Below are positions 32,387 through 53,326 of a stretch of 64,000 nucleotides of DNA, piece after piece. Where the stretch lies: the NCBI GenBank assembly GCA_964252035.1, contig OZ176208.1, one strand, 5' to 3'. Source of the stretch: Podarcis erhardii (taxonomy: Eukaryota). The first letter of the stretch is position 1, and each line of letters opens with the position of its first letter. The notes under the pieces were generated by a model. The model did not search any database. It had not been told where the DNA came from and saw nothing but the letters and a program-made list of their open reading frames with translations. The position numbers and the translations under genes were made by a program.

Positions 32387-32957
32387 CCCAATCCTGACTT
32401 TTTTATTATTATTTTTGCATGAAGAAAGGGACTTTTAAGGGCATTCAGCACTTAGATGGTCCCCAAGTTCAGAAAACTGTTATCAGGATTCCCAGTCACC
32501 AGGAAGTTCCTAAATACAGGAGGTTAGAACCCACCTTCCTCAGACCTTTCCTCTCAATATGGAAAATTTGAGAGAAATTTGGTACAGGTAGGGAGGTTGA
32601 GGTGGGGCTGATGGCCATGCCACCATGCCATCAGCCTCCTATATTTTACTTTCACAAGTTCAGGTTGAGCACCTCATGAGATCTATGGTGCTGCAACTGT
32701 TAAAGACAGCTGCCACATAGTAATTTCATCTATTCCATTCAGTTAAAGTATAAATACTATTGGATGCTATACTTGCAATCAGACTCAACATCTCCAGTGA
32801 ATTTCCATCCTCTTCCCTGGGCATAGTATGTTTTTGCCTGGTGCCTAACTGCTAGTAATGAGTTACAGATAGGTAGCTGTGTTGGTCTGCCATAGTCAAA
32901 ACAAAATAAAAAAATTCCTTCCAGTAGCACCTTAAAGACCAACTAAGTTAGTTCTTG

Positions 32958-32995
32958 GTATGAGCTTTCGTGTGCATGCACACTTCTTCAGATAC
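32958..32995 (-). ncRNA. Second (inverted) copy of the same minimal hammerhead ribozyme
   Basis: Exact reverse complement of 33541-33578. Confidence 0.85.
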
Positions 32996-33000
32996 ATTGA

Positions 33001-33360
33001 AACATCACACATACCATCTCGGGACTATTTAATTGCTCATCGTCTAACATTGTGTATGCCATCAAATGCCAACAGTGTCCTTCAGCTCTCTATATTGGAC
33101 AAACAGGCCAAACCTTACGCCAAAGAATAAACGGACATAAATCTGACATCAGGAATCACAAGACAGAGAAACCAGTAGGAGAACACTTCAATCTCCCAGG
33201 ACATTCTATACAAGATCTCAAAGTAGCTGTTCTATTACACAGGAATTTCAGAAATAGACTGGAAAGAGAAGCTGCTGAATTGCAACTTATTACCAAACTT
33301 AAAACCATGGAGAGACCTGGTCTGAACAAAGACATTGGATTCTTATCTCATTATACATGA
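33001..33360 (+). pseudogene. GIY-YIG endonuclease C-terminal fragment of the Penelope-like element
   Basis: CSSSNIVYAIKCQQCPSALYIGQTGQTLRQRINGHKSDI...EHFNLPGHS...ERE...GLN. Confidence 0.92.
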
Positions 33361-33540
33361 CAAAGCCATTTTTCACCTTCTCACCCCTTGCTTTTTCCTA
33401 TAAGACCTATTGCAGTCGTTAAGAGTCGTCAACAGGCTCATCACAGCTATCTGCCAATCACCCATTCCCACCACCCTTCTGAGTAATACCCCTCCCCACC
33501 TTCTCACTATATAGAAGGGTCTGGTGACTTCTGTTTCAGT

Positions 33541-33578
33541 GTATCTGAAGAAGTGTGCATGCACACGAAAGCTCATAC
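33541..33578 (+). ncRNA. Minimal type I hammerhead ribozyme in the Penelope pLTR
   Basis: GUAU-CUGAAGA-A-GUGUGC/AU/GCACAC-GAA-AGCU-C|AUAC: stem I GUAU:AUAC, stem II 6 bp, palindromic AGCU stem III. Confidence 0.85.
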
Positions 33579-34311
33579 CAAGAACTGACTTAGTTGGTCT
33601 TTAAGGTGCTACTGGAAGGAATTTTTTAATTTTGTTTTTGCTAGTAATGAGGTATCCAGGTGTTTCTCTGCTTGGGGGTGGTAGTCCAAAGGTCAGGAGC
33701 CACCACAGCAAAGGTTCTTTTCCCAGTGCCCACCAGATGACAGGGACACCTGGAGAAAGGGCTCATATGAGAATCTCAGTGGATGGGCAAATTAATACAG
33801 GAGAACTACTGAGTAGCTTTGAAATGGGATTGAAGGCATGAAACTCAGTGATATCTCCAACTCTTGTAGTCAGTTACTTTAAGCTAGGGGTAGCCAACAT
33901 GTTACCCCCAGATGTTGTTGGATTCCAACTCCCATCAGCCCCATCTGACATAACCATTGGTCAGGGTAGATGAGAGTCTAACAATCATCACGGTGTGTGT
34001 GTATCTGTTCCTTGTATGCAGGCTAGATTTTAAGCACTACAGCTTATACTATCAGAGTAGTGGTAAATGATTCATTGCACTTTTCTCTCCAATCATCTTG
34101 CAAAGAATTTTCTTATCTGATGTTTTGCAGCTTCAGAGACACCAATTAGCTCACAATTATTCAGGACCTGGATAAGTCTCCCAATATGGATGATAATTTG
34201 ACACCATCCTGATTCTGAAGTATCACGTTTCCCGATTGGATTGAATTCCTGCATGGAACAAATTAGAAGTCATCTGCCTTTCCTTGAATTCCACAATGAT
34301 CAAAATATGTA

Positions 34312-42088: not shown

Positions 42089-42307
42089 AATGCCACTACC
42101 GAGCTCAGGAGGGGGTGGGGTTGCGGGCTCCCGACCACGCCCACACGCCTGCGAGGCTGGCGTCAGCCTCGCGGGAAGCAGGGATTCCCTCGTTTCTTCC
42201 CCGCGCGCCAGCTAATCGGCTGGCGGCAGGGGCGGGCCTTTCAGAGGCCACTTAAGGTCAGGGCAGCCCTTGGCTCGCCCCTTTCCTACCTTGCAGCTGC
42301 GCGATTT
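42089..42307 (+). repeat. Split direct repeat A1 (5' terminus)
   Basis: 219 bp, AATGCCACTACC...GCTGCGCGATTT, repeated at 48984-49202; GC/CpG-rich. Confidence 0.95.
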
Positions 42308-42393
42308 GGATCACTTGGATCGTCCTCCTGGCGCTGCTGCTTTCTTTCGCTTCCTGGTTCTAGCGACTCGCTGCTTGCTCAGGATCAACTGTG

Positions 42394-42555
42394 CCTCCTT
42401 AGGTTTACACCCCCACCGTCCCCGGAGTCTGAGCGCCGGCAGCGCGCGCGGTCCATGAGCCGCCAAGTCCACGTACCTCCTTAGGCTTACACCCCCACCG
42501 TCCCCGGAGTCTGAGCGCCGGCAGCGCGCGCGGTCTGCGAGCCGCCAAGTCCACG
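42394..42555 (+). repeat. 82-bp tandem duplication in the DIRS 5' leader
   Basis: CCTCCTTAGG(T/C)TTACACCCCCACCGTCCCCGGAG... starts at 42394 and again at 42476. Confidence 0.9.
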
Positions 42556-43008
42556 CTTCTCCCCCCTTTTGCGTCGCCTGCTCGCCGCTTTAGCGGGCGA
42601 GCCTCCTGGGAAAAAACTACACTCCATGGAGGGCTTCGCAAGGATTGTCGGTTAGCAAGCCGCATCAGCGCTCGCTGGAGGTTTCTAGCCGGGAACGGGG
42701 GAGCTGCGGGGGCGCTTTGGGGGGGTGTACGGGTGCGGGGTTAGAGGCACTGGGGGTTTTCTTTTCCGTTTTCTTACCTTTAGTTCTGCTGCTGTACTTT
42801 GTTCTGCTGCCATTTGTTCTGTGTTGCATTTGTCTCATCGGCCACTCCGCATCGCTTAGCTAAGGTTCGGAGCTACTTGGGGGCAACCTCACCGCCTTTA
42901 CTGGCTTGGAGGCAACCTCAGCGGCCTACCTAAACTTCAGTGGTTCGTGGGGTTGTTCTCAGCAGCATTTTGCTTCAGCGTCCAGGTTGCCTGGACAACG
43001 GCTGGGGC

Positions 43009-43082
43009 CGGCTGCCATCTTAAGTTTTCCACGTGGCTTCTGCGGTGGCCATTTTGGGTGGCTTCTGCGGCGGCCATTTTGG
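43009..43082 (+). promoter_or_regulatory. Cluster of YY1-like motifs (GCCATCTT, GGCCATTTTG x2 in a 25-bp tandem repeat) in the DIRS leader
   Basis: The motifs resemble the YY1 consensus CCGCCATNTT; motif match only. Confidence 0.35.
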
Positions 43083-43923
43083 GTGAGACAAATTTGGTAG
43101 AAGGGCTCTGAGATCAGCCTATTCTTTCAGTACTTCGCCTGGGGGGCTTATTTGGGCCTCGGTGGATACTTTCTGTGGTTTTACCCCGAAATAGATTACT
43201 TTAATTCCTTCATTTCCGTTTATTACTTTTTAGCCTTTGCAAACTTTCTAGTTTCTTTCTCCTTTAACACCCCCCCCCCCCCGTTTCTTCGCTAACCTTT
43301 GGCTGGATAATTGTTACTCTTTTGGCCAAAATTCTTAATTTGCCATTACAGTTTATTCGGGCATTTGTTTCCCTCCCTCGCTAACTACCAGTGCTGGTTG
43401 GCAATTTTATTTCTCCTTAGCAAGTCCTGGGATTTGTTGCCTTTCAGTCAGCAGCCGGCTAAATCTTATATTTTGGCCTTTTCTATTCTAATTATCCTTT
43501 CAGTGTCTACTCCTTGCTAGCTTGTTCTGCAATTAGGCGTGGTATTTACGCTCCAGTGGGCAGTTATTTACTTCTATAAGCAGATAGGCTGACAACTATT
43601 AATAGCCTGACTGTTAATACTTCTTCCTTGCTTATTAAATAATATATATATATATTTATACCAATAAATAAATAAATAAATAAATACAATAAAAAAATAA
43701 TAATAATTAAAAAACACAATAATAATAAATAAATTAATTAATTAAAAAAAAATTCTTCTTCTATACTTGAACACAACTTCATAGGCCAAGTAGATAAGCA
43801 AGACCCTGCCAAGTTGGAACAGTCTGCTTGAAGTACCTTTTAGATTTTGATCAATAGCTGGTAATACGTCAGACTGATCTAGCGCTCCGTGCCAATTTCC
43901 TGCTTTCTCCTTTCTGCTTTATT

Positions 43924-45408
43924 ATGGAGGGCAACGGTAATTCCCAAGCACCTCAGCCTGGTAATGTTCTGGTGCCAACGGGCCCTTGCAATCCTCAGGC
44001 CCTGGCTCAGCTATTTTCCGCTCTTCAATCCTTTTACACCCAGTGCAGGGCACCCATCACTCCCTCTCTGAACATTGTGGAAGTGACTCAAGATTGCATC
44101 CCGGATACCCCCTCCAGTCAGCAGGGTCAGGAGGGGCCCTCCACCAGCGCAGCTTCCATGGTCCAGCAGGCCCCCAGCAGGCCTCGGACACGTCTGCAAA
44201 CGGCGCGTGCTCAAAAGTCTAAGTCAGGTCCACAGAAGGGTAAGGTGCCTGCTCAAAAGCCTAGGGCCAATACACAGAAGCCTAGACCATCGGTGGCCTC
44301 CCCTGCGGTCCCTCGACAGGAGGTAATAGACGTCCCTAGTGTTTTTCAGGACAACCCAGGGCAGCAGAGTTCCTCGGAGGGGTCAACATCGGATGAGGAG
44401 ATACTCCCACAGCAGGCCATCAATGACCCTGCCCCGGGCGACGGTGTCCCACGGGGTGGAAAACGGAAGTCGAAGAAGAAGCATCGGTTGAAGAAGAACA
44501 AGAGGAGAGACACTTCTGACTCTGAGGAGGAGACAGGTACTTCTTCTTCTGAAGGGGATAGTGATGCTCCTATGGAGACATACTGGGGAGAAGGGGAGGA
44601 CACGGGAGCCCCACTGTGGATCCATGAAAGGAGGGCCAATTCACACAGAAAAGCCTTTAATGGCACTCTTGACTGGAAGGATGGTGCTTTGGTCCAAGAC
44701 ATTAAAGTCTCAACCAACTCCGCCACTGACTTTATTCTGGGGAATCACCTCTCTAAGAAGAAGAGGAATAAGATATTAAATGGTGATTACGTTGATATGT
44801 TTTCGTTGCTACCCCCAGCTCAAGTTAAGGGAAAAGGGGAGAAAAGAAGGTATTACGGTAAAAAGAGGTACAGGGCTCCTGGGGTTGAGCGAACTTTTGA
44901 GAATTGGCTTAATGGGTATCAAGTTTTTATGGCAGTAGTGTCCAGTTGTTATCCCAAACGGGGCATGCACCTCGCGTCTTACCTGGCGCACGTCAGGCGG
45001 GCGCGGGAATTAGCGGGCGATGAGGCCGCCTTGGCGTATGATGAGGAATTTCGGAGGAACGCCTCGCTGCTGTCCTCTACGCGATGGGACCAAAAGGACA
45101 ACAACTGCTGGATGGAACATGTGGGGCCGAACATCGAAAAGAAATCCACTGAGCAGCCAAAATCTGGTAAGGTGGAGACGCAACGCCGTAGACAGTGCTG
45201 GGACTTCAACAAGGGTACCTGTCAGCGCGTAGCCTGTAAGTACTTGCACGAATGTGATAAGTGCTTAGGCAGCCACCCAGCAATCAACTGTTACAAAGGG
45301 AAGCAGCAGCCCTTTCGCGGAGGCAGGGGTCACCTCACCCGGGGTAATCGAGGTGCCCCCGTGGGACCCGCTGGTCCCGCCCAAGGGCCGTCTGGGTCCC
45401 GATACTAA
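43924..45408 (+). CDS. Gag-like ORF1 of the DIRS/Ngaro element (494 aa)
   Basis: ATG in strong Kozak context (ATTATGG). Low-complexity N-terminus, basic NLS-like run (KRKSKKKHRLKKNKRR), typical DIRS Gag core (HLSKKKRNKILNGDYVDMFSLL; YDEEFRR; RWD). C-terminal C-x7-C-x4-C-x3-H plus C-x2-C-x3-H-x4-C zinc fingers. Confidence 0.9.
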   Translation: MEGNGNSQAPQPGNVLVPTGPCNPQALAQLFSALQSFYTQCRAPITPSLNIVEVTQDCIPDTPSSQQGQEGPSTSAASMVQQAPSRPRTRLQTARAQKSKSGPQKGKVPAQKPRANTQKPRPSVASPAVPRQEVIDVPSVFQDNPGQQSSSEGSTSDEEILPQQAINDPAPGDGVPRGGKRKSKKKHRLKKNKRRDTSDSEEETGTSSSEGDSDAPMETYWGEGEDTGAPLWIHERRANSHRKAFNGTLDWKDGALVQDIKVSTNSATDFILGNHLSKKKRNKILNGDYVDMFSLLPPAQVKGKGEKRRYYGKKRYRAPGVERTFENWLNGYQVFMAVVSSCYPKRGMHLASYLAHVRRARELAGDEAALAYDEEFRRNASLLSSTRWDQKDNNCWMEHVGPNIEKKSTEQPKSGKVETQRRRQCWDFNKGTCQRVACKYLHECDKCLGSHPAINCYKGKQQPFRGGRGHLTRGNRGAPVGPAGPAQGPSGSRY

Positions 45409-47017
45409 CGTTTCCCTCAGCTTGGCGTACTCCCCGATAAAATTACAGCCCCTGAGAGCACTGTTGAAGCTTTATCCAAATAGACAAGCGGCCTGCCTCT
45501 TAGAGGAAGGGTTTTCCCAGGGTTTTAGAATCCCGGTCACCTTCACCCCCAACGCAAGTTGTCCCCCTAACCAGACGTCTGTGCTAGAAAGACCCGACAT
45601 TGCCACAAAAAAGATCCAAAAAGAGATTGCCGCCGGGAGGGTGGCCGGGCCCTTCACTTTCCCCCCCATTGAGGGTTTGCATATTTCTCCCCTTGGTATT
45701 GTCCCTAAGAAGGCCCCCGGGGAATTTCGTATGATACATAACTTGTCTTACCCCAAGGGAGCCTCGGCCAATGACGCCATCCCCCAGGAAATGTGCACAG
45801 TGAAGTATGCCTCCTTCGATCAAGCTGTGCGGTTGGTAAGGAGTTTTGGTAGGGGCGCCTTTATGGCAAAATGCGACATTGAGTCGGCATTTCGCCTTCT
45901 TCCGGTCCACCCAGATGACTATCGTTGGTTGGGTTTCAAGTTCCAGGGAGCCTTCTTCATCGATAAAGCTATGCCTATGGGATGTTCGATTGCCTGCGCT
46001 GCGTTTGAGACCTTTAGCACATTTCTGGAATGGGCCTTAAAGTTTAGAACTGGTTCCGAAGGGGTGGGGCACTATCTGGATGATTTTATTTTGGTGGCGA
46101 GGAACGCTGGTGAGTGCAGGACCTTGCTTCTAGCTTTTGAATCCCTAGCCAGTGAACTGGGGGTCCCTTTGGCAAGTGAGAAGACAGAGGGCCCGGTCAC
46201 GACCATGACGTACCTGGGTATCGAACTGGACACTTTGGCCCAAACTTCTCGCTTACCAGCTGAGAAGTTGGTTGCCTTAAAAGAACTTATTGGCCAAATG
46301 CTGCCTTTAAAGAAGGTCACCCTGAGACAAATTCAATCCCTTCTGGGGCACCTCAACTTTGCCTGCCGTGTGGTTTCCCCCGGCCGCCCCTTTTGTGGCC
46401 GTCTAGCTAAGCTGTCTGTGGGTTTACGGTCTCCACATCATAGGGTTCGCCTATCCAAGGCGGTAAAGTCCGACCTCCAAGTTTGGTTGCAATTCCTAGA
46501 TGGTTTTAACGGCATATCTTTGTGGCAGGATACCTTGGTCCTGCAGTCGGATTTTCAGGTACATTCGGATGCAGCTGGATCCTTAGGTTTCGGTGTGTAC
46601 TTCAGGGGGCAATGGTGCGCCCAGCGTTGGCCTCCCTCTTGGCAAGGAAAACCAATACTGCGTGATTTGACATTCCTGGAATTCTTCCCTATTGTAGTCG
46701 CAATCCACATTTGGGAGGAGCAGTTAAAAAACCATAGGGTTTGTTTCTGGACGGACAACCAAGCGGTTGTCTCAGTTCTGAATAAACAATCTTCACATTC
46801 TCCTAGAGTTGCTTCGCTTTTGCGGTATTTCGTCCTTTCATGCCTGCGGTTGAACCTTCACGCTTCCGCCAAATTCGTTCCCGGTATAGACAATAACATT
46901 GCGGATGCTTTATCTCGTTTCCAGATGGAACGCTTTCGCTCATTGGCGCCGGATGCGCAGCAGCAGCCGCAACCGTTTCCGGAGCACCTCTGGAGTATTG
47001 GCAACGAGAAGCAATAA
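45353..47017 (+). CDS. Reverse transcriptase / RNase H of the DIRS/Ngaro element (554 aa, uninterrupted)
   Basis: RT motifs: ISPLGIVPKK, FRMIHNLS, KCDIESAFRLLPV, MPMGCS, HYLDDF, YLGIELD. RNase H motifs: SDAAGS, LEFFPI, WTDNQ, NNIADALSR. The frame is open from 45269 (+1 relative to gag); the first ATG is only at 45731. Confidence 0.97.
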   Translation: MPPWDPLVPPKGRLGPDTNVSLSLAYSPIKLQPLRALLKLYPNRQAACLLEEGFSQGFRIPVTFTPNASCPPNQTSVLERPDIATKKIQKEIAAGRVAGPFTFPPIEGLHISPLGIVPKKAPGEFRMIHNLSYPKGASANDAIPQEMCTVKYASFDQAVRLVRSFGRGAFMAKCDIESAFRLLPVHPDDYRWLGFKFQGAFFIDKAMPMGCSIACAAFETFSTFLEWALKFRTGSEGVGHYLDDFILVARNAGECRTLLLAFESLASELGVPLASEKTEGPVTTMTYLGIELDTLAQTSRLPAEKLVALKELIGQMLPLKKVTLRQIQSLLGHLNFACRVVSPGRPFCGRLAKLSVGLRSPHHRVRLSKAVKSDLQVWLQFLDGFNGISLWQDTLVLQSDFQVHSDAAGSLGFGVYFRGQWCAQRWPPSWQGKPILRDLTFLEFFPIVVAIHIWEEQLKNHRVCFWTDNQAVVSVLNKQSSHSPRVASLLRYFVLSCLRLNLHASAKFVPGIDNNIADALSRFQMERFRSLAPDAQQQPQPFPEHLWSIGNEKQ

Positions 47018-47025
47018 AGGGAGTA

Positions 47026-47898
47026 TTGTCCGCACTGGCTCCTTCTACTCTCAAATCTTATAATAAGGCATGGCTAGACTTTACATCTTTCCACAGGAAG
47101 AAGGAGTGGTTTAGGCCTGGTAGGCCGCCGTCTAAGTCGGAAGTCATAGAGTATATGGTTCGCCTTCGAGATCTAGGTCGGGCTCCCAAAACCCTCAATA
47201 TCCATTCGGCGGCGATATCCTTCTTTTCTAAAGCCTTATTCTCCGTCGATCCCTGCTCACATTTTGTTGTCCGGAAAATGCTGGAGGGCTGGCGCAGGGC
47301 CAGACCTCAGGGCCAAGACGGTAGAAGGCCCATAACGCTGGACATACTTACCCAAATCCGCAGAAAGCTTAGGGTCCTTTGTTGGTCAAGGTATGAGGCC
47401 AGATTATTCTCTGCTGCATTTTCCTTTGCATTCTTTGGGGCTTTGCGCATTGGTGAGGTGGTCTGCGTAGACCGTGCAGCCAATAGGGGCCTATTGTTGG
47501 AGGATGTAACGGTAGCCAGCTCGCACGTCATACTAAAAATCCGCAGTTCCAAGACCGACCAGCTGGGCAGGGGAGCCTTTATCCACCTCCAGGCGACCCA
47601 GAAGGCTGGCCCTTGCCCAGTAAAAGACGCTAAGAAATATCTGTGTGTAAGACCGAAATCTAATGGCCCCTTTTTCTTGCATTCCGATGGGTCCTTTCTC
47701 TCTAAACATCAGTTCACGAGGGTCATGCGCAAAGCGATCGCGGCCATTGGTCTGCCGCAAGAGGAGTATGCTGCACACTCCTTTCGCATTGGGCCGGCGA
47801 CCACCGCCGTTCATATGGGTTTACCGGCTGAAAGGATTATGGACATGGGGCGTTGGAAATCCAACGCATACAAGGGTTACATTCGGAAGCCTTTTTAA
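47026..47898 (+). CDS. Tyrosine recombinase (phage-integrase family) of the DIRS/Ngaro element
   Basis: Catalytic motifs FFGALRIGE (R), SKTDQ (K), HSFR (H-x-x-R), GRWKS (W) and YKGYIR (Y), plus an N-terminal LAPSTLKSY core-binding region. The frame is open from 46897 and overlaps the RNase H end; the first ATG is at 47155. Confidence 0.96.
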   Translation: MSALAPSTLKSYNKAWLDFTSFHRKKEWFRPGRPPSKSEVIEYMVRLRDLGRAPKTLNIHSAAISFFSKALFSVDPCSHFVVRKMLEGWRRARPQGQDGRRPITLDILTQIRRKLRVLCWSRYEARLFSAAFSFAFFGALRIGEVVCVDRAANRGLLLEDVTVASSHVILKIRSSKTDQLGRGAFIHLQATQKAGPCPVKDAKKYLCVRPKSNGPFFLHSDGSFLSKHQFTRVMRKAIAAIGLPQEEYAAHSFRIGPATTAVHMGLPAERIMDMGRWKSNAYKGYIRKPF

Positions 47899-47973
47899 TT
47901 TCCTGTCACTCTTTTCTCTTCTACTCACCAAGGGCATCCCTCCTGACCCGGCTTTCTTATTCTATCCTTCCAG

Positions 47974-48558
47974 GTGCTGTTTTGGTGCGACTGTGGATTA
48001 TCGGTCACAGTATCGTTCATTGGGCTAAACGTCGAGCAGAGCGCAGGCGACGGGATGCTGACCTCCTACTACCTAACAATGTTAAAGTGTCATGGGTTAC
48101 TAGGCGTGGTATGCGTTGGGAAGAATTCTTCCCAGCCATATCCAGAAGAATTGCGGAAGAAGGTTCGCCTGACGCCTTGATCATACAACTGGGCGAGAAC
48201 GATCTGGCTTATAGGAAAGGGGTAGACTTAATGTGGAACATTATCAATGACTTGGAACCGTTGAGGGCGTCCCACTCTAATATTACAATAATTTGGTCAT
48301 CCTTGCTGGAAAGGCGAGTTTGGCGGGATGCAGCGTAACCCGCAGCGGTGGATAAAGCCAGAAGGATTGTGGAGCGCACCGTGGCGCGTAGGGTGGCCGC
48401 GCTGGGCGGACTGGTCATCAAACACCCGGAAATTCAATATAACGATACACTCTATCGCTGGGATGGCGTACATCTATCTGATGCTGGCAATGATATCTGG
48501 TTGGCTGATATTTGGAATTTGGCTGATATTTGGAATTAGGGATTGGTTACAGGTCTGA
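47974..48558 (+). pseudogene. SGNH/GDSL-type hydrolase (esterase) ORF of the element, disrupted
   Basis: Blocks WIIGHS (Ser), RGMRW (Gly), IQLGENDL (Asn) and DGVHLS (His) lie in one frame. In-frame TAA at 48336-48338. An 18-bp tandem duplication (48501-48536) leads to TAG at 48537, and a shifted frame continues as RDWLQV. Confidence 0.88.
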
Positions 48559-48594
48559 GGGTATTGGCGGCGAGCCGGCGTAACGCGGCTCGAG

Positions 48595-48985
48595 TGGCGG
48601 TAGGCATTGGCCGGGGTATTGTCATGCAAATGAGATCGGGGGGGAGGAGCGCCATCACCTCCCCCAATGCTTGAAGGGTAGTTCGTTAAAGGACTCCGAG
48701 GGGCGACGCCTCGTCCGAAACCTACAGAGGCTAGGGCCTAAAGCGTGCCCCCAAGCGGTAACCCCTCGGGGAGCGCCTAGGGATATGCATCTCGGGTAGC
48801 TCCCCCTGTTGGTGTTTAACCCTTCCTGGTTAGACCGGATAGTTGGTTAGGGGCCAATGCCTAAAGCCAATACCTCTCTTACCTGTAATCAATAAAGTTG
48901 TGGCCATTTTCGCCCATTAACCTAAATACTTGTGTCCAGTGTCTTTATTCATTCCACCTGTGGGGGGGAGGGTATAGCCACGCAA
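48595..48985 (+). repeat. Split direct repeat B1, containing AATAAA at 48891-48896
   Basis: About 390 bp, repeated at 49366-49755 with about a dozen differences, mostly transitions. Confidence 0.95.
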
Positions 48986-49202
48986 TGCCACTACCAAGCT
49001 CAGGAGGGGGTGGGGTTGCGGGCTCCCGACCACGCCCACACGCCCGCGAGGCTGGCGTCAGCCTCGCGGGAAGCAGGGATTCCCTCGTTTCTTCCCCGCG
49101 CGCCAGCCAATTGGCTGGCAGCAGGGGCAGGCCTTTCAGAGGCCACTTAAGGTCGGGGCAGCCCTTGGCTCGCCCCTTTCCTACCTTGCAGCTGCGCGAT
49201 TT
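48984..49202 (+). repeat. Split direct repeat A2
   Basis: Copy of 42089-42307; shares the AA dinucleotide with the end of B1. Confidence 0.95.
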
Positions 49203-49365
49203 CCCACCCACCCACCCTTTAGGTTTGCCATCGACTTTGCTATGGGCTTCGGCTGGTCGCCGCTTGGGGCCAGGTAGGAATTTTTTCCATTTGGCTAAGT
49301 GGCTGGTTCGGAGCCATTTGGTTTTTTGCCTACCTCTTAGCAATTCGTCACAACTTCCTCGGTTA

Positions 49366-49755
49366 TGGTGGTAGGCATTGGCCGGGGTATTGTCATGCAA
49401 ATGAGATCGGGGGGAGGAGCGCCATCACCTCCCCCAATGCTTGAAGGGTAGTTCGTTAAAGGACTCCGAGGGGTGACGCCTCGTCCGAAACCTACGGAGG
49501 CTAGGGCCTAAAGCACGCCCCCGAACGGTAACCCCTTGGGGAGCGCCTAGGGATATGCATCTCGGGTAGCTCCCCCTGTTGGTGTTTAACCCTTCCCGGT
49601 TAGACCGGATAGTCGGTTAGGGGCCAATGCCTAAAGCCAATACCTCTCTTACCTGTAATCAATAAAGTTGTGGCCATTTTCGCCCATTAACCTAAATACT
49701 TGTGTCCAGTGTCTTTATTCATTCCACCTGTGAGGGGGAGGGTATAGCCACGCAA
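49366..49755 (+). repeat. Split direct repeat B2 (3' terminus), AATAAA at 49661-49666
   Basis: Copy of B1, ending GGTATAGCCACGCAA. Confidence 0.95.
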
Positions 49756-52661: not shown

Positions 52662-53324
52662 CTTTCGTAGATTTTCACGGGTACAGGAATGCAGGTTTTG
52701 GTGTCCTCGGGTGTCTTCCCGTGTAAAAGTTGGGGTGTCTAGGCGACGTTTCGACGAGGTCTCACTCGTCATCTTCAGGCTGGTGCTTTCGGCTTCTTGT
52801 TACTGGAACAGAGCAGGATCTCAGTGTTTGAGTTCCTATAAATACTGTAGAGGGGGTGTGGTGTATAGCCTCCAATGTTCTGGGCAGAGAGGAAGTTCCC
52901 AGGCTAGTGTGCCTTTTCTTCTTTTGTTCCTTAATTACTTGAGAGATATCTTGAGTGATTTCTTGAGTGATATCCTGAGTACCACTTAGGTGGGTCATTA
53001 GGTGTGGATTAGTTGTTAAAGTCTTTGTGTCTTGACCTCTTGAACTTTGTGAAGAGTTTACCTGAGAAGATGGCTGTACTGTACTTAGTTGTGCTCTGGC
53101 TTGGCTTCGTGTATAGGGGCGAGCTGTGGTTTTGTGGCTTGTGTCAGCCAGATCTGTGTAGGGATTGCAGGGGGGTGCAGCATCCGGAGGTGCCACCATG
53201 GATTGGCTACTGGAACAAGAAGCCGAAAGCACCAGCCTGAAGATGACGAGTGAGACCTCGTCGAAACGTCGCCTAGACACCCCAACTTTTACACGGGAAG
53301 ACACCCGAGGACACCAAAACCTGC

Positions 53325-53326
<2 letters not shown>
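52659..53326 (-). mobile_element. Penelope-like element 3' end/pLTR (different family from 32863) with an inverted terminal copy, inserted in an (AT)n tract
   Basis: 112-bp inverted arms at 52689-52800 and 53215-53326 contain CTGAAGA...GAAACGTC; (AT)n lies on both sides. No coding domain is visible, so the family assignment is by architecture. Confidence 0.75.
53235..53272 (+). ncRNA. Minimal hammerhead ribozyme-like motif (inverted copy at 52743-52780, - strand)
   Basis: CUGAAGA-U-GACGAG/UGAGAC/CUCGUC-GAA-ACGU-C; palindromic ACGU stem III; stem I has only about 2 bp. Confidence 0.65.

Follow-up and report, generated by a model that had tools for sequence, protein, structure and literature searches.

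A single transcript of an Ngaro retrotransposon in the lizard Podarcis erhardii is likely to yield four proteins, namely Gag, a +1-frameshifted Gag-Pol, and two spliced products that fuse the N-terminus of Gag to a tyrosine recombinase (YR) and to an SGNH hydrolase. The element spans positions 42089-49755 on the + strand of a 64,000-nucleotide stretch of contig OZ176208.1 (GenBank assembly GCA_964252035.1), referred to here as the window, and its 7.67 kb carry four frames (gag, pol, YR and hydrolase) within split direct repeats arranged A1-[ORFs]-B1A2-B2 (ORF, open reading frame). From the conservation of its signals, we hold it very probable that YR and hydrolase are made by splicing from one donor inside gag, directly after base 44536, and only slightly less so that Pol is made by a +1 shift. 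As an earlier note on this DNA had observed, the downstream frames have no ATG ahead of their domains, and the first in-frame ATGs (45731 in pol, 47155 in YR and 48111 in the hydrolase frame) fall inside them. That note had proposed expression by alternative splicing, an idea that conservation and lizard gene models support for the Gag-YR and Gag-hydrolase fusions but not for reverse transcriptase (RT).

For the comparison of copies we extracted 119 loci of 10 kb from the genome, of which the 117 with a YR match were kept (two were dropped) and joined by the window copy to give 118 elements. Counts at the hydrolase acceptor refer to 117 elements, one locus having no mapped hydrolase, and counts at the YR acceptor to 114, four elements having no YR junction. 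Codon usage in gag was assessed in 32 distinct intact ORFs (40 long ORFs less four with a wrong first Met and four duplicates), which share a median amino acid identity of 52%, and codon usage in pol in 34 distinct intact ORFs with 314 conserved degenerate columns.

At the start of the predicted YR exon, the acceptor CAG|AT is present in all 114 elements retaining the junction. The ATAAC motif (46893-46897) and the TTTCCAG ending at 46924 lie where the earlier note had put them. Because this acceptor overlaps RNase H codons, we tested whether its synonymous freedom is used: the Gln codon is CAG in 33/33 ORFs, one of only two invariant codons among the 314 columns, and the remaining seven Gln columns of pol mix CAA and CAG. 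In 113 of 114 elements the YR frame stays open for no more than 2-10 codons upstream, and no Met is common to the copies, first Met codons being spread from codon 22 to 204. The frame carries the catalytic R, K, HxxR and Y motifs and its homologues are named integrase or recombinase; its Pfam matches (Phage_integrase and SAM_4) are weak and below the curated cut-off.

Ahead of the hydrolase, the window copy has the features attributed to it: a 75-nt spacer after the YR stop (47898), CTGAC at 47943-47947 and a CAG ending at 47973. Across copies, 113 of 117 elements place a YAG exactly 20 nt 5' of the Trp in the catalytic block, and 113 of 117 have a CTNAY branch motif upstream of it; the tract is rich in pyrimidines, and only four elements contain another AG between -28 and -4. 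The spacer between YR stop and hydrolase varies in length, and all three frames occur. Intact copies carry the GHS and DGVH motifs on which the SGNH assignment rests, with Pfam GDSL matches below cut-off. In the window copy a stop (48336-48338) and a short duplication (near 48501-48538) disrupt the hydrolase frame, which has 120 codons compared with 190 in most copies.

These observations bear on the published view, in which YR would be reached by -1 frameshifting in the RNase H/YR overlap and the hydrolase by reinitiation, the splice-like motifs being by-products of coding. Section 3.4 of PMC13003380 quotes Poulter and Butler (2015) as proposing frameshifting for Ngaro YR, and the lizard YR does overlap the end of RT/RNase H in the -1 frame, as in the model quoted there; some Met precedes the catalytic Ser in 27 of 88 intact hydrolase frames, which would suit reinitiation, and none does in the other 61. 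Against this, the RNase H/YR overlap contains no X_XXY_YYZ slippery site common to the copies (the best heptamer occurs in 3/114), the hydrolase acceptor sits in non-coding DNA of variable length and frame, a conserved and phase-matched donor is present, and the predicted joins appear in gene models. We therefore judge the published route highly improbable for this element, which favors a splice into YR and places its shift signal at gag/pol, in the +1 direction.

The earlier note was right that the YR and hydrolase acceptors are both phase 1, and the donor at 44536/44537 has the same phase. Its Gly codon (44536-44538), in Ser/Glu-rich surroundings, is GGT in 32/32 intact gag ORFs; the other 17 conserved Gly columns of gag vary, the commonest codon filling at most 18 of 26-32 rows. 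The sequence of the donor over 86 mapped elements is CAG|GTACNT; 84 of them keep G|GT and 84 have A at -2. The two donors suggested previously, AGG|GTAAGG at 44239/44240 and CTG|GTAAGG at 45166/45167, do exist in the window copy and are both phase 1 from the ATG at 43924, but they are not the conserved ones: the former keeps GTAAG in 2/32 intact gag ORFs and the latter keeps GTRAG in 53/85 elements. Conservation across copies, the check the note had called for, thus upheld the YR and hydrolase acceptors and went against both of its donors and its RT-side sites. The candidate introns have the features of the U2 type, from a GT donor through branch point and pyrimidine tract to a YAG, and they also match in phase and show signs of selection; branch point and tract are weaker at the YR acceptor. 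The predicted shared exon closes just past a basic stretch at 44461-44508, KRKSKKKHRLKKNKRR, which looks like a nuclear localization signal and may act in targeting.

No donor close to the gag ATG or within the 5' leader was conserved among the copies compared. In the most distant subfamilies (L127, L135, L137, L141, L144, L146 and L148), a YAG preceded by a T-rich tract lies 2 nt 5' of the gag ATG, which suggests an intron in their 5' leader. Elsewhere in gag, the sequence CCT AGT GTN TTT CAG (PSVFQ; window 44338-44349) is conserved at codon level within a poorly conserved part and could be a further acceptor or an RNA signal of another kind; as a candidate acceptor, its CAG (44347-44349) is the only Gln codon used (28/28), but it is absent from 4/32 rows and has an AG 9 nt upstream. 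The Arg codon at 44632-44634 is AGG in 31/32 ORFs, another instance of synonymous constraint.

We found the predicted joins in existing lizard gene models. Of 11 longer hydrolase homologues, seven are lacertid RefSeq or UniRef models in which a Gag N-terminus is joined to the hydrolase at the donor codon, and 6/41 YR matches are models that fuse Gag to YR at that codon. Both outcomes occur at one Zootoca locus, LOC118082278, whose isoform X1 (XP_060139102.1, 533 aa) is a YR and whose isoform X2 (XP_034965332.2, 397 aa) is a hydrolase, the two being identical over 207 residues and divergent thereafter. Both are predicted models; alternative isoforms from the RefSeq pipeline normally rest on transcript alignments. 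Models from Pogona, Anolis and Eublepharis (P0041, P0049 and P0010) have an N-terminal low-complexity segment before YR at about the same place. A Lacerta agilis model (P0002) holds a hydrolase segment within an immunoglobulin-superfamily gene model, possibly through exonization via the element's acceptor or through model error.

From these sites, phases, conserved positions and gene models, the spliced RNAs and the frameshift product likely exist, and production would run as follows. The unspliced RNA would be the template for copying and would yield Gag with a small share of Gag-Pol, a slip on CCC_UUU_CGN producing a Gag-RT-RNase H protein of 1030 aa. Splicing from 44536 to 46925 would remove 2388 nt and give Gag(1-204)-YR of 528 aa, and splicing from 44536 to 47974 would remove 3437 nt and give Gag(1-204)-hydrolase in frame, cut short in the window copy. 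The shared exon would supply the start codon and the basic nuclear-targeting stretch and, since it ends right after that stretch, both enzymes would be carried to the nucleus or the particle.

Table 1. Positions of the element's frames, repeats and predicted expression signals in the window.
Feature	Position	Strand	Remarks
Repeat A1	42089..42307	+	left end of element, starts AA; 96.8% identity to A2
gag-like ORF1, 494 aa	43924..45408	+	CCCH and CCHC zinc fingers at the C-terminus
Predicted shared first coding exon	43924..44536	+	613 nt = 204 codons + 1 nt, phase 1
Predicted phase-1 splice donor CAG|GTACTT	44534..44542	+	last exon base 44536
Predicted +1 frameshift site CCC_TTT_CGC	45310..45318	+	into pol
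pol frame, RT and RNase H	45317..47017	+	566 codons from predicted shift; RVT_1 E 7.7e-13
YR 3' splice site	46893..46924	+	ATAAC branch-like motif to TTCCAG, within RNase H coding sequence
Predicted YR exon	46925..47898	+	tyrosine recombinase with N-terminal SAM-like domain
Non-coding 75-nt spacer	47899..47973	+	branch point CTGAC (47943-47947), pyrimidine tract, acceptor CAG
Predicted SGNH hydrolase exon	47974..48338	+	truncated in window copy; weak GDSL matches
Repeat B1	48595..48985	+	AATAAA at 48891; 96.9% identity to B2
Repeat A2	48984..49202	+	AA at 48984-48985 common to B1
Repeat B2	49366..49755	+	right end, closes with AA; AATAAA at 49661

The route to Pol was examined in the same way. 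The pol frame, which carries YLDDF and RNase H motifs, is +1 relative to gag, and gag carries CCC TTT CGN at a distance of 66-93 nt before its stop in nearly all copies. Within the intact gag ORFs TTT is kept in 32/32, the Arg codon is always CGN and CCC is kept in 29/31; TTT_CG is kept in 82/90 mapped elements. Stops in the +1 frame occur in 0/32 ORFs downstream of the motif, compared with 10/32 over an equal length upstream, and where intact the frame stays open for 554-581 codons. The motif thus has what is expected of a UUU_CGN site: a zero-frame position, a place where an overlapping +1 ORF begins and conservation at synonymous sites. Lacertid, gecko and Anolis carolinensis entries carry the matching P-F-[VADEG] 33-43 residues upstream in the pol frame (9/57 entries with an upstream extension, many entries beginning after the site). 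Among Gag homologues P0174-P0323, FR occurs more often than any other dipeptide over the 25 residues past the last zinc knuckle (57/121, at protein level and without a formal null), which hints at a wider spread of the shift motif, and P0110 and P0123, the latter a Xenopus laevis model, have PF-R/Q in the pol frame ~75 residues upstream, so that in related elements the motif may be read in a different frame. The pol Phe codon after YLDD (46085-46087) is TTT in 34/34 ORFs, again a case of synonymous constraint.

An unlikely variant would keep splicing for YR and hydrolase and have Pol made by a splice into its frame, by a -2 slip or by non-AUG initiation, CCC_UUU_CGN then serving as a different RNA signal or as a protein motif. 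Among the 120 pol homologues listed, six are models carrying gag sequence, one of which uses a 45166-type donor together with an AG in the zinc finger, so that a spliced Pol stays in contention; the GTRAG count at 45166 given above also speaks for this variant, and replacing UCC by CCC lowered PA-X frameshifting (PMC3498833). However, the six gag-pol models use six different junctions, the zinc-finger AG is present in 15/32 gag ORFs, and the motif is invariant at codon level, lies in the gag frame and marks the place where the +1 frame turns and remains open.

A scheme in which all three enzymes are spliced, RT being reached through an acceptor at 45420 or 45448 from the donors at 44239 or 45166, appears more improbable still. 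The motifs on which the earlier note built it are where it said they were, a TACTAAC at 45403-45409 that overlaps the gag stop, followed by AGs at 45419-45420 and 45447-45448, and TACTAAY recurs in 40/86 copies. But TACTAAY is the gag stop plus its neighbors, and the stop is the one fixed feature there: TACTAAC itself is found in 17/86 copies, the AG at 45419 in 12/86 and that at 45447 in 34/86. These AGs are moreover phase 2 and 0, so that they cannot be joined in frame to a phase-1 donor, and the donor at 44239 fares as poorly as reported above. The +1 shift remains our preferred route to Pol.

Several points weigh against the proposed program of two splices and one shift. Element copies are kin and counts are therefore not independent; in non-redundant sets (<85% DNA identity) the YR acceptor is kept in 38/38 and the hydrolase acceptor in 35/38, and gag donor and shift motif are both kept in 8/8 of a set with <60% Gag identity. 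GTAC at +1 to +4 makes the donor a weak consensus match, and the YR acceptor sits in conserved RNase H coding sequence with a weak branch point. The RefSeq entries that contain the joins are predicted models, at least 7/41 YR matches open their frame otherwise, and 4/11 hydrolase matches are joined elsewhere. As for Pol, protein constraint on P-F-R-G-G could account for part of the shift motif, and the RefSeq model joining gag to pol via a 45166-type donor counts here as well.

Exact-match searches of the genome for spliced retrocopies returned 0 hits to the gag-YR junction pattern and 0 to the gag-hydrolase pattern, a result with no bearing on RNA; YR exon starts without the T at -6 likewise gave 0 exact matches, relative to 96 for the unspliced control. 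In five sequencing runs that were DNA-like in behavior, none of the joints listed lay at predicted sites. Runs X4 and X5 contain a high-depth joint over 42262-45844 that skips leader and gag away from the splice sites, and is a deleted derivative in organism B.

The element is an Ngaro (DIRS order, tyrosine-recombinase retrotransposons) by its repeat layout and domain content. Its split-repeat layout recurs in copies L038, L103, L144 and L089. RVT_1 is the sole Pfam match in pol, the RT/RNase H frame has no protease or DDE integrase, and the YR frame follows RT/RNase H, as in Ngaro. No methylase match was found in Pfam for a domain after RNase H, and pol stops ~30 codons past the last RNase H motif. 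A DIRS1-like identity, which entails terminal repeats in inverted orientation together with an internal complementary region, was ruled out, the element having direct repeats only. Its nearest named relatives are records from lacertid lizards, and relatives sought in viral and metagenome contigs were not found there. At least 135 YR matches, with identities of 55% upwards, were counted in the genome; a large share lies on one contig of 30 Mb (C19), which would fit a sex chromosome or another region of low recombination. AA occurs at both element ends (42089-42090 and 49754-49755) and at the B1/A2 junction (48984-48985), as would follow from recombination between a circle junction and an AA target. 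The 5' leader has an 82-bp tandem duplication (42391-42555), and short elements with ~112-nt inverted arms lie elsewhere in the window (52689-53326 and 32893-33643).

Retroviruses and LTR (long terminal repeat) elements make spliced subgenomic RNAs from one genomic RNA, as for env, foamy-virus pol and copia gag. The Ngaro program would resemble theirs in splicing part of the genomic RNA to reach downstream ORFs and in frameshifting Gag-Pol. It differs in that integration is by a YR and that 204 codons of gag precede the donor, which would leave the integrating enzyme and the hydrolase both with the N-terminus of Gag. Goodwin and Poulter (2004) reportedly noted that some YR elements contain spliceosomal introns, so a prior mention is possible. 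In the literature searched, which did not include Poulter and Butler (2015) itself, no splicing and shift program of Ngaro was described, and the terms sought in the accessible text of PMC7192593, PMC6681497, PMC9210276, PMC4157794, PMC4495291, PMC3783388 and PMC8547959 revealed none.

The closest described elements are DIRS-53_XT and DIRS-54_XT of Xenopus, Ngaro elements with an SGNH hydrolase ORF described for amphibians (PMC9210276). They share the order A1-[gag, RT/RH, YR, SGNH]-B1A2-B2 (RH, RNase H), overlapping frames and the lack of a methyltransferase; that paper contains neither 'splic' nor 'frameshift'. The window element differs in its lizard host and in its conserved splice and shift signals. 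As to the shift, UUU_CGN is reported as a demonstrated +1 site for influenza A PA-X, at ~1% (PMC3498833), and as a proposed one for plant amalgaviruses (PMC5052127), with the same zero-frame heptamer core, a +1 downstream ORF and use of all four CGN codons; the lizard motif differs from these in lying in a retrotransposon gag/pol overlap and in having CCC before UUU. By their titles and abstracts, the eight papers listed for UUUCGN all concern viruses or ASXL genes. For the hydrolase, PMC3905857 describes an SGNH esterase in ORF1p of ZfL2-1, a CR1/L2-type LINE (long interspersed nuclear element), that binds phospholipids and has weak activity. A similar role in Ngaro would be a guess. In both, the SGNH domain is attached to a Gag-like or ORF1 protein with basic motifs, in frame within ORF1 in ZfL2-1 and, in the lizard element, presumably by splicing.

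The Ngaro family and its hydrolase ORF were already known; what is likely to be revised is the printed frameshift route for YR. How YR retrotransposons produce enzymes from overlapping, ATG-less frames has so far been a guess, and our analysis offers exact sites that can be tested: one donor, two acceptors and one shift site. These define the real proteins (Gag-YR, Gag-hydrolase and Gag-Pol) that would be relevant to the biochemistry of the recombinase or of the unexplained hydrolase, and the program would account for a group of lizard genes labeled 'uncharacterized' in RefSeq. We lean, with some reserve, towards a conserved program of retrovirus grade in Ngaro elements, with a PA-X-type shift in a vertebrate mobile element and perhaps extending across animal Ngaro. 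If true, the UUU_CGN +1 shift would also be used from within a host genome, where the diverged copies that carry it number in the scores.

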